From Escherichia coli O127:H6 str. E2348/69 (lineage in GTDB: Bacteria > Pseudomonadota > Gammaproteobacteria > Enterobacterales > Enterobacteriaceae): a stretch of DNA of 64,000 bases. Made by a program: the position numbers. Positions 49,301-52,300 of the stretch are shown here, one piece after another (position 1 is the first letter of the stretch; each line of letters begins with the position of its first letter). The stretch lies in the NCBI RefSeq assembly GCF_000026545.1, contig NC_011601.1, one strand, 5' to 3'.

Positions 49301-52300
49301 TGAAACCGATTGAGGTGGATGGCTCTAATGAGATGGGGCAACTGGCAGAGAGTTTGCGCCATATGCAGGGAGAGCTGATGCGTACCGTCGGTGATGTGCG
49401 CAACGGGGCCAATGCCATCTATAGCGGTGCCAGCGAAATCGCCACCGGCAATAACGATCTCTCTTCGCGCACCGAGCAACAGGCCGCTTCGCTGGAAGAG
49501 ACGGCAGCCAGCATGGAGCAACTGACCGCAACGGTGAAACAGAATGCCGAAAATGCGCGCCAGGCCAGCCATCTGGCGTTAAGTGCTTCCGAAACGGCGC
49601 AACGCGGCGGCAAAGTGGTGGATAACGTGGTGCAGACCATGCGCGATATCTCCACCAGTTCGCAGAAAATCGCCGATATTATCAGCGTAATTGACGGCAT
49701 TGCCTTCCAGACCAATATTCTGGCTTTGAACGCGGCGGTTGAGGCTGCGCGTGCGGGTGAGCAAGGGCGCGGTTTTGCGGTGGTCGCGGGAGAAGTGCGT
49801 AATCTGGCCCAGCGTAGCGCTCAGGCTGCTCGTGAAATTAAAAGCCTGATTGAAGACTCGGTGGGGAAAGTGGATGTTGGCTCTACGCTGGTCGAAAGCG
49901 CCGGGGAAACAATGGCGGAGATTGTCAGTGCCGTGACCCGCGTGACGGACATTATGGGCGAAATTGCTTCTGCTTCTGATGAGCAGAGCCGTGGTATCGA
50001 TCAGGTTGGCTTAGCGGTTGCTGAGATGGACCGGGTAACCCAACAAAACGCCGCGCTGGTGGAAGAATCTGCCGCTGCCGCCGCCGCGCTGGAAGAGCAG
50101 GCCAGTCGCCTGACCGAAGCAGTGGCAGTGTTCCGGATTCAGCAACAGCAGCAACAGCAGCGTGAAACATCGGCTGTAGTAAAAACCGTGACGCCAGCTA
50201 CGCCGCGTAAAATGGCCGTGGCAGATAGCAGCGAGAACTGGGAAACGTTTTAACGTAATGATGCCGGATGAGTATTTCATCCGGCGTTTTTATTATTAAA
50301 CCAGGAACAGTGAAATCGCCGGGATATATGTCACCAGCATTAGCATTAACAGTAGAGCCGCCAGTAGGGGCAGGGATTGTTTAAAGAAATTTCCCACCGA
50401 AACTTGCGTGATATTACATACCAGCAGCATCACGGTACCTACCGGTGGCGTGAATGCGCCAATCGACAGGTTGAAGATCATGATGATGCCAAAATGCACC
50501 GGATCGATGCCAAAGTGTTCGACCACCGGTTTTAATAGTGGTACCAGGAGCAGCAAAATGGCGTTTCCTTCCAGAAACATCCCCAGCGTCAGTAGCAATA
50601 TGTTGATAATCAACAGGAACATGTATTTGTTTTCGGTCAGCGAAGTCACAAAATTCGCCACTGCGACACCAGCATGTTCCATTGAGAAAATCCATCCCAA
50701 TGCGGCGCTGGCCATGATTACCAGCATCACCGATGCGGTTGCGCGTGCCGTTTCGCCCAATGCTTTGACGACATGAGAAATCCGCATTTCACGATAGATA
50801 AAAAAGCCAATCGCCAGCACGATTAGCACCGCTACTGCACCTGCTTCTGTTGGGGTGAAAATGTTAGCGCGAATACCACCCACCACAGCAAAAATGAGGA
50901 ACAGCGCAGGCCAGGCCTGTCCCAGCGAGAACACCACCTCTTTGCACGTAGGCCAGCTTTCACGCGAGGGTTTAGCGTTAGTTTTGCGGGCGACAAGGTA
51001 GACGGTAAACATCAGTACGACTGCGCATAGCAAACCAGGTACCAGTCCGGCGATAAACATTTTTCCGATAGAGACGTCGGCAACCAGACCGTAAATAATC
51101 AGGGCTATTCCAGGCGGTATGATCGGGGTGACTAACGAGCCACCAGCGGTAATGGCGGCGGCAAACGCGCGGTTGTAGCCTTTACGCTCCATCTCCGGCA
51201 CCATCATGCGCGACAGCATCGCCGCGTCAGCAAGGTTAGAGGCGCTGACGCCGCCCATCATGGTGCTGACGAGAATGTTTGCCACGCCCAGTCCGCCGCG
51301 CATTTTCCCCACCAGAACGTTGGCAATGTGCAGGATGCGTTCGGCAATGCCGGTGTAGCTCATTAGTGTGCCGAGCAAGATAAAAAACGGAATTGCCAGC
51401 AATGATGGGCTTTGCGTTGGCGCGATTAGTCTTTGCACGGCAATTTCAATCGGTACGCTGGAGAAGAATAAAAAGTAAGCGATGATGCCAATAAACATCG
51501 CCAGATAGACCCGAATGTTGAGAAACAAACAGACGATCATTAGCGGAATAATCAATAACCAACTCATTGCATTTTGTCTCCGCTATCGGATTGTTTTGTA
51601 TCGTTTATTAACCAGTAGAGGGTATAAATAGCCGTTGCCAGTGCGCCGACAGGGACCGCCAGATCGATCCAGAACCAGGAAACCTTCAGAATTTGTGTCA
51701 CTTTAAACTGCGCCATTTCGGCTAGTCGGTAGCCCAGCCAGGCCATATAAAGCAGCAGTGCGATGGAGAGAAGGGCGACCAGTACTGCAATAACACGCCT
51801 GAGTTTGCCTGGAAGCATCTCCATCAGGAAGGGAATGGTCAGGTGCGCCCTGTCACGTTCTGCCACCACTCCACCTAACATCACCACCCAAATCATCAGC
51901 ATTCCCGACATTTCTTCTGTCCATTGAAGCGGTTGGCCGATGAAATAACGCATAAATACCGCTCCAATTGTCACCACAACCAGAACGAATAGCGCAAAGG
52001 CAGCACTAAATTCTGCCACTTTGCCAAAAAGACGCATGAAACCTCCTGTTAGTGCGTGTCCTGCCTAAGAGAGATGAGGCAGGACGCTGAGCATTAATGC
52101 TTATTGCAGTTGCTGTTGAATGGTTTCGTACAGACCTGGTGTCCATTCCGGGAATTGAGAGTAAACTTCGCGTGCTTTCTTCTGGAATGGTCCAGTATCG
52201 GGATAGATCACTTCGACGCCGGCTGCCTGCATGGTTTTCAACATTTCGGCATCACGCTCAAGAGTGAGTTTCTGGCTATAGACACCCGCTTCATAGCCGG

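Follow-up and report, generated by a model that had tools for sequence, protein, structure and literature searches.

An in-frame 9-bp repeat of variable copy number at the start of the C-terminal tether of the Escherichia coli serine chemoreceptor Tsr

The run of seven glutamines close to the C-terminus of Tsr in Escherichia coli O127:H6 strain E2348/69 is very probably one member of a natural allele series of 4, 7, 10 or 13 glutamine codons (4Q, 7Q, 10Q and 13Q), produced by slippage or exchange within an in-frame 9-bp repeat at the junction of the receptor body and its C-terminal arm, with an expected small effect on the reach of CheR and CheB. The window analysed here is a 64,000-nucleotide stretch of the E2348/69 genome (contig NC_011601.1), whose initial annotation had pointed to this run as a CAG/CAA trinucleotide tract that might vary in length between strains.

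Results

The tract lies in tsr, at the junction of the conserved receptor body and the NWETF tether

We identified the gene as tsr from its product, which ends in NWETF, and from the RefSeq annotation of the identical E2348/69 locus. Window positions 47050-53253 (6,204 bp) match E. coli E2348/69 NZ_CP059840.2 without a difference; RefSeq there assigns the ORF to tsr (WP_000919586.1), flanked by btsT and a TRAP-transporter operon. The gene, which encodes the serine chemoreceptor (methyl-accepting chemotaxis protein I), occupies 48589..50253 on the + strand (554 amino acids plus stop) according to the ORF, the RefSeq match and Pfam. The Pfam domains PF02203, PF00672 and PF00015, precomputed on the identical protein, correspond to the periplasmic Tar/Tsr ligand-binding domain, the HAMP domain and the signalling domain of a methyl-accepting chemotaxis protein (MCP), and the C-terminal 154 amino acids align to the Tsr chains of PDB entries 6S1K, 1QU7, 8C5V and 3ZX6. 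Compared to K-12 tsr, there are 30 differences over 1,644 aligned bp with the tract excluded, and btsT is the upstream neighbour in both strains; the gene is the K-12 tsr orthologue, at the same locus and near-identical in sequence. Just 3' of the stop codon, a consensus scan returned a terminator-like hairpin followed by a T-run (50260..50298, + strand; stem of 13 pairs, 6 of them GC, with a T-rich tail), which is a pattern match only. An antisense ORF at 50011..50280 (89 amino acids, poly-Leu) was rejected as a gene, since it merely mirrors the 3' end of tsr.

The C-terminal NWETF pentapeptide was read from the translation at 50236..50250 (+ strand), and its role as the CheR/CheB docking site is taken from earlier work (PMC7390727, PMC4692393, PMC10561060). 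The linker or tether segment that precedes it, I517-E549 (50137..50235, + strand), comprises the 33 residues that separate R516 from N550 in the window allele. Its start is given by the end of conservation, which stops at I517 across 71 aligned sequences (the invariant columns end at I268 of the aligned fragment), and the low pLDDT of its later part in the AF2 model described below is further evidence for the segment. The same boundary appears in the literature: the Parkinson laboratory described the Tsr residues after 517 as non-conserved (PMC4692393), and a 2023 study counted the tether from I517 and gave it 30 residues in K-12 (PMC10561060).

Positions 50140-50160 on the + strand read CAGCAACAGCAGCAACAGCAG, that is, CAG CAA CAG CAG CAA CAG CAG. 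Direct reading of the window sequence thus bore out the seven-glutamine CAG/CAA run, which is in frame within the tsr ORF and encodes Q518-Q524 of Tsr. The description of the run as a trinucleotide tract did not hold, because Tandem Repeats Finder (TRF) detected a perfect 9-bp unit, CAGCAACAG, repeated 2.4 times at 50140-50161 with 100% matches, and not a 3-bp unit. The tract itself can be written either as CAG followed by two copies of CAACAGCAG or as 2.3 copies of CAGCAACAG. Its nucleotides 1-12 are the same as nucleotides 10-21, and the 12-nt sequence CAGCAACAGCAG is found twice, offset by 9 nt. With period 9 and 2.4 copies, the array has the two or more head-to-tail units that mark a VNTR. 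Within the 64 kb of the window, (CAR)x7 is found once; it is found in 0 of 100 dinucleotide-preserving shuffles. As to position, the run had been placed in the flexible linker before NWETF; it does lie in the linker, but it does not adjoin the pentapeptide. Instead, it forms the very start of the linker, 25 residues ahead of NWETF, and is directly preceded by I517, with which conservation in the receptor body ends.

A role of these glutamines in CheB deamidation or methylation was considered and rejected on general knowledge, since the run is outside what we take to be the methylation helices and their consensus.

Tract length varies among E. coli strains in 9-bp steps

Allele lengths were counted in 5,426 complete E. 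coli genomes with short queries, made of the tract and its 17-nt flanks, at strict E-value limits, which pass alleles of the same length only. Longer or less stringent BLAST queries gave ambiguous results, as 100%-identical pieces were joined across the length gap and 4Q and 10Q alleles were mixed in the band of at least 99% identity. The tsr segment with the tract was present in 5,382 of the 5,426 genomes. About three quarters of these, ≈4,056 (75%), carry seven codons, a number composed of 3,351 exact matches and 708 with 1-2 SNPs, less 3 partial matches that came from 13Q alleles. The 4Q allele of K-12 was found in 1,211 genomes (22.5%), a frequency inflated by the K-12 laboratory derivatives in the collection. 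The longer alleles are rare (10Q in 72 genomes and 13Q in 3, together about 1.4%), and an interrupted seven-codon allele, QQEQQRQ, was present in 40. These five classes total exactly 5,382. Neither the 7Q nor the 4Q query had any match in the 90-95% identity band, where one-codon length variants would fall among the 5,382 genomes, which implies that length changes only in 9-bp steps; no tract of a length other than 12, 21, 30 or 39 nt, and no one- or two-codon step, was found in this collection.

In an alignment of tsr 3' ends, K-12 MG1655, E2348/69 and HS have one, two and three CAACAGCAG units after the initial CAG (4Q, 7Q and 10Q, respectively), and strains Z1323HEC0355 and A13 have four (13Q), giving a Tsr protein of 560 amino acids. 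The tether from I517 to NWETF is accordingly 30, 33, 36 or 39 residues long for 4Q, 7Q, 10Q and 13Q. The comparison of tsr alleles that the initial annotation proposed thus showed that tract length is not identical in all strains, and it confirmed both suggestions made there, namely that the number of glutamine codons differs from strain to strain (4, 7, 10 or 13 among the complete genomes) and that the tract alters tether length, counted in residues from body to NWETF. Copy number differs among strains by whole units, as in a VNTR, and every length class inspected keeps the reading frame. Both common lengths are represented in the PDB, with 4Q in 6S1K and 7Q in the HAMP-Tsr chimera 3ZX6. Point-interrupted tracts (QQQQQHQ, QQQQQQH and QQQQQQQQHQ) were also seen; the best 120 matches of a full-length protein search were all near-identical E. 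coli or Shigella proteins, His-interrupted alleles among them. Rare length variants elsewhere in the Tsr protein were of a single residue and were singletons in the protein collection; these could be errors.

The seven-codon length is the outgroup length

To place the allele series among relatives, one genome per species was scanned for the coding pattern T(E/Q)AVAVFRI, a single degenerate pattern, which returned 101 stretches. None of these came from the main E. coli representative, E. albertii, E. fergusonii, S. enterica subsp. enterica or S. bongori, and the outgroups were S. enterica subsp. arizonae and diarizonae, Citrobacter, Enterobacter and three other Escherichia species. Matches in Burkholderia and Lentisphaerae, few in number, were set aside as unrelated. 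The Tsr-type receptors of Salmonella, Citrobacter, Enterobacter and the other Escherichia species resemble E. coli Tsr in having a body that ends in T(E/Q)AVAVFRI, an NWETF-type C-terminus, a linker of ≈33 residues and a QQ-x-QQ opening at the same position. They differ in the motif at the tract position, which is imperfect and interrupted (QQEQQRA or QQEQMKA) with glutamine runs of no more than 2. In the two S. enterica subspecies and several Citrobacter species, the sequence is I-QQEQQRA-R(E/D); in Enterobacter, it is QQEQMKA-RE; and in two other Escherichia species, it is QQ(A/T)QQRQ-HE. Judged from these sequences, the pure-glutamine perfect repeat is essentially an E. coli feature, to which E. 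whittamii, with QQTQQQQQQ at the tract position, comes partly close.

The rare E. coli allele QQEQQRQ-RE (N96 type) fits the outgroup pattern, and this match, together with the outgroup pattern itself, implies that the seven-codon length is ancestral. In 97 related receptors of other species, the modal linker length is 33 residues (54 of 97), and 92 of the 97 linkers have 30-35 residues, with glutamine runs mostly of 2 or fewer. Since linkers across Enterobacterales most often have 33 residues, as with 7Q, the 30-residue tether of K-12 is a shortened minority allele. The retention of ≈33 residues across this order, despite free divergence of the linker sequence, further suggests that linker length is under constraint.

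Length changes recurred on near-identical tsr backgrounds

We compared tsr from 23 genomes, chosen to include rare alleles; once the tract was removed, the other 1,644 bp were collinear in all of them. Different tract lengths were found on closely similar backgrounds. Over the 1,644 bp, 2 SNPs separate the 7Q genes of E597 and E686 from the 4Q gene of UID2404240036, and the 400-bp flanks are identical; the 13Q gene of Z1323HEC0355 differs from the 10Q gene of MP1 by 3 SNPs, all lying over 590 bp upstream of the tract; and the 13Q gene of A13 differs from the 10Q gene of LF82 by 8 SNPs. These near-identical backgrounds with different lengths imply that gains and losses of 9 bp have recurred. 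Fitch counts on neighbour-joining trees of the 23 genomes required 11 length changes for the whole gene, 13 for the 5' 1 kb and 10 for the 3' 0.64 kb, where the minimum would be 3, in trees that are themselves affected by recombination and for a sample picked for rare alleles. With these two caveats, length changes in tsr are repeated and independent of the flanks, as in a VNTR.

Each tract length was also found in several gene neighbourhoods: in the genomes inspected, the upstream neighbour of tsr is btsT, hpaR or a MurR/RpiR regulator, and the downstream neighbour is lgoT or the TRAP operon. A25 and 2014C-3338 have in common the marked tract QQQQQQQQHQ and differ by 27 SNPs elsewhere in tsr, and where E2348/69 and A25 differ, the SNPs are concentrated 3' of the tract. 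From such patterns, some allele sharing clearly reflects recombination rather than new slippage. The best reading of these comparisons is repeated gain and loss of 9-bp units in situ, presumably by slippage, combined with horizontal shuffling of alleles. By contrast to this recurrence among strains, length was unchanged among independent assemblies of the same strain (four of HS, two of LF82, three of 8178 and many K-12 derivatives).

Discussion

We propose that the repeat, whether its unit is taken as CAACAGCAG or CAGCAACAG, sits where the conserved helical body of Tsr meets the non-conserved arm that bears NWETF, and that the overlap of its 12-nt direct repeats would allow strand slippage or unequal exchange to gain or lose whole 9-bp units. 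Whole units would be added or removed because two copies of CAGCAACAGCAG start 9 nt apart, and the CAA interruptions, which leave no long pure CAG run, would explain the lack of one- and two-codon variants. The seven-codon tract is the common state, of outgroup length, with the K-12 4Q allele as a 9-bp deletion and the 10Q and 13Q alleles as expansions, and homologous recombination also carries alleles between backgrounds.

Two explanations that deny this kind of length change have little in their favour. That the differences are sequencing or assembly artefacts of a low-complexity region is next to impossible. Assembly errors are known to arise in repeats, and singleton single-residue variants elsewhere in tsr could be such errors, but every difference in the tract is a whole multiple of 9 bp made of perfect units, and each allele is common to many independent complete genomes (1,211, 72 and 3 for 4Q, 10Q and 13Q). 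Moreover, the re-sequenced strains agree with one another, and a tract of 12-39 nt is far below any read length. Scarcely more credible is that the tract is a phase-variable contingency locus, which would turn Tsr on and off or vary at a high rate within clones, although it is a tandem repeat within the gene of an environmental sensor. All 5,382 alleles are in frame, as changes in multiples of 9 bp cause no frame shift and hence no on-off switch, the repeat has only 1.3-4.3 copies, and independently propagated stocks of K-12, HS, LF82 and 8178 each hold one length. A tract that is always in frame and is stable in re-sequenced strains is therefore not a phase-variation switch.

The proposed effect on reach follows from published work on the tether. 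The NWETF pentapeptide binds CheR and CheB and concentrates them locally around the methylation sites (PMC7390727). In Tar, for chains of 22, 29, 34 and 46 residues, the CheR position x0 shifts linearly by 0.128 ± 0.048 nm per residue, and tether length also changes adaptation precision (PMC10561060). If the Tar slope applies to Tsr, each three-glutamine step would slightly shift the reach of tethered CheR and CheB, by ≈0.4 nm, and the full span from 4Q to 13Q would move CheR reach by ≈1.2 nm. The effect of tract length is thus expected to be small and quantitative rather than on/off, and it may be negligible, as the natural range of 30-39 residues is inside the range of 22-46 residues that still works in Tar.

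This estimate treats the glutamines as part of a flexible chain. Alternatively, the run could extend the C-terminal helix of the body, in which case the origin of the tether would shift toward the membrane by ≈0.45 nm per three residues with no added contour length. We regard this alternative as possible but doubtful. Glutamine runs beside coiled coils are helix-prone, and when residues 250-554 were modelled with AF2 from the alignment of 71 sequences (mean pLDDT of 86), the helix continued through the run to residue 530, which suggests that the glutamines may extend the rod rather than lengthen a random coil. However, pLDDT in this model, which is of a monomer fragment, declines between residues 510 and 529 from 84 to 66 and stays under 50 from residue 531 on, and a helix past residue 517 would lack a four-helix-bundle partner. 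Conservation also ends at I517, which has been taken as the start of the tether, and EPR on Tar has been cited for an unstructured C-terminal segment (PMC10561060, PMC7390727).

A further question is whether the variation matters to the cell. In one form of the argument, lineages tune the tether, and hence adaptation kinetics or the assistance neighbourhood, to their habitat, so that length variation is selected and the repeat is an evolvable tuning knob. Consistent with this idea, linkers across Enterobacterales are tightly held to ≈33 residues despite free sequence divergence, an indication that their length matters, tether length in Tar measurably shifts CheR reach (PMC10561060), and length changes recurred many times. 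Nevertheless, such tuning is improbable. Three quarters of the genomes keep the ancestral 33 residues, and 10Q and 13Q together make up only about 1.4%; inspection of the genomes listed revealed no association with host or pathotype; and each allele is scattered over backgrounds, as recurrent neutral or slightly deleterious mutation would give. The related claim that tether length is a naturally variable, fitness-affecting trait of E. coli, in which the 9-bp repeat shifts CheR/CheB reach and the speed and precision of adaptation and in which K-12 Tsr is atypical, seems to us only marginally less unlikely.

The polymorphism is ordinary in-frame length variation of the VNTR type and not a new kind of system. 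Bacterial coding VNTRs or minisatellites, as used in MLVA typing, likewise have a perfect short unit, change by whole units, are recurrent and homoplasic and keep the frame. Unlike typical coding VNTRs, the tsr array is very short (1.3-4.3 copies) and apparently stable on laboratory time scales, and unlike the VNTRs of surface proteins, it lies in a cytoplasmic signalling tether; the literature searched gave no evidence that tsr is an established VNTR typing locus. Eukaryotic CAG/CAA polyglutamine tracts share with the tsr tract the mixed codons, CAA that breaks pure CAG, and length polymorphism through repeat instability. By contrast, the unit of change in tsr is 9 bp rather than 3 bp, the tract is short, and no aggregation or disease biology is implied.

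The gene, its linker and the NWETF tether are already textbook material, and in-frame length polymorphism of tandem repeats is familiar. The C-terminal linker and NWETF tether of Tsr and Tar, the high-abundance chemoreceptors of E. coli, are known from the Hazelbauer and Weis laboratories and from the tethered-particle model (PMC10561060). The seven residues that open the Tsr linker are those of the tract, and it is the length of the linker that has been varied artificially in Tar. The Tsr of this literature is that of K-12, with 4Q and a 30-residue tether, whereas the window and ≈75% of complete E. coli genomes have 33 residues, and natural alleles reach 39. Because we found no description of a natural series of tsr glutamine or repeat lengths in the literature searched, the census and its polarity, with K-12 as the short, derived allele, may add a new descriptive point.

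A practical consequence is that Tsr numbering is offset by three residues after position 517 between strains, for example in PDB 3ZX6, which is 7Q. More broadly, the laboratory reference allele of K-12 (4Q, 30 residues) is a derived minority, and the 33-residue tether is the species-typical and ancestral form. If tether length did affect fitness, then K-12 Tsr, the basis of quantitative models of chemotaxis, would be a short-tether deletion allele measurably unlike the 33-residue receptor. The natural series of 30-, 33-, 36- and 39-residue tethers could be used to test the CheR tethered-particle model in Tsr without engineered sequences.

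Genomic neighborhood of tsr

Among the tsr loci taken from 23 E. coli genomes (L001-L023), the genes next to this serine chemoreceptor gene vary from strain to strain. One type of 3' neighbor, a TRAP transporter operon on the minus strand (window 50296-51567 and onward), is present in the window, LF82, and MP1, and another, lgoT-lgoR-lgoD, is found in K-12, HS, O157, and Nissle. The 5' neighbor is btsT, hpaR of the hpa cluster, a MurR/RpiR regulator gene, or a hypothetical gene. Variable regions flank tsr on both sides in this set of loci. Several lengths of the glutamine tract (Q tract; window 50140-50160) occur within every combination of these flanks.

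The tsr 3' segment had no match at all in 44 of 5,426 complete genomes, and the porcine ETEC strain ETEC1730 carries tsr as an annotated pseudogene containing an internal stop (L014, 467-2122). An 89-amino-acid antisense ORF with a poly-Leu run (window 50011-50280, minus strand) is simply the 3' end of tsr, Q tract included, read in reverse complement; nothing indicates that it is a gene.

Other length variation in Tsr, and residue numbering

A second small repeat, encoding Ala495-Ala500 (window 50071-50088), precedes the Q tract by 50 nt. It has a 6-bp CTGCCG unit (window 50069-50087, detected by TRF) and codes for ESAAAAAAL in the methylation helix. Tsr variants with one alanine fewer (P0105, 553 aa) or one more (P0108, 555 aa) are rare; each is a singleton in the protein collection and could be an error or a rare mutant. 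In the HAMP region, 16 residues (Tsr 232-247; window 49282-49329) are tandemly duplicated in a single database protein (P0031, 570 aa), and another protein (P0086, 555 aa) carries an additional His adjoining this same segment. PDB 3ZX6, the structure of an Af1503 HAMP-Tsr chimera, derives from a 7Q tsr allele and not from K-12, in contrast to the 4Q sequence of PDB 6S1K, so that its residue numbers past 517 are shifted by 3 relative to K-12 Tsr.

Divergent and interrupted Q tracts

Tsr of Escherichia whittamii (L116) contains QQTQQQQQQ, made up of QQT followed by two CAACAGCAG units. The linker of this Tsr exceeds those of the other non-coli Escherichia by two codons, a difference for which a simple step of 3 codons starting from their sequence does not account. 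Within E. coli, the tsr allele of strain N96 (L016, 467-2131) is divergent, with 52-69 differences from common alleles over 1,644 sites. Its type, found in 40 genomes, has an interrupted QQEQQRQ tract similar to the motif of the outgroup species. This allele may be old or may have been imported from another Escherichia lineage; its closest relative among the sampled genomes, 2013C-4282, has a 4Q tract.

A CAG to CAT change gives His-interrupted tracts (L009, strain 2014C-3338; L010, strain A25; proteins P0094 and P0120), and QQQQQHQ is present on hundreds of contigs. Strains 2014C-3338 and A25 have QQQQQQQQHQ in common despite differing at 27 other tsr sites. That otherwise differing genes share one interrupted tract speaks for recombination inside the tsr 3' end.
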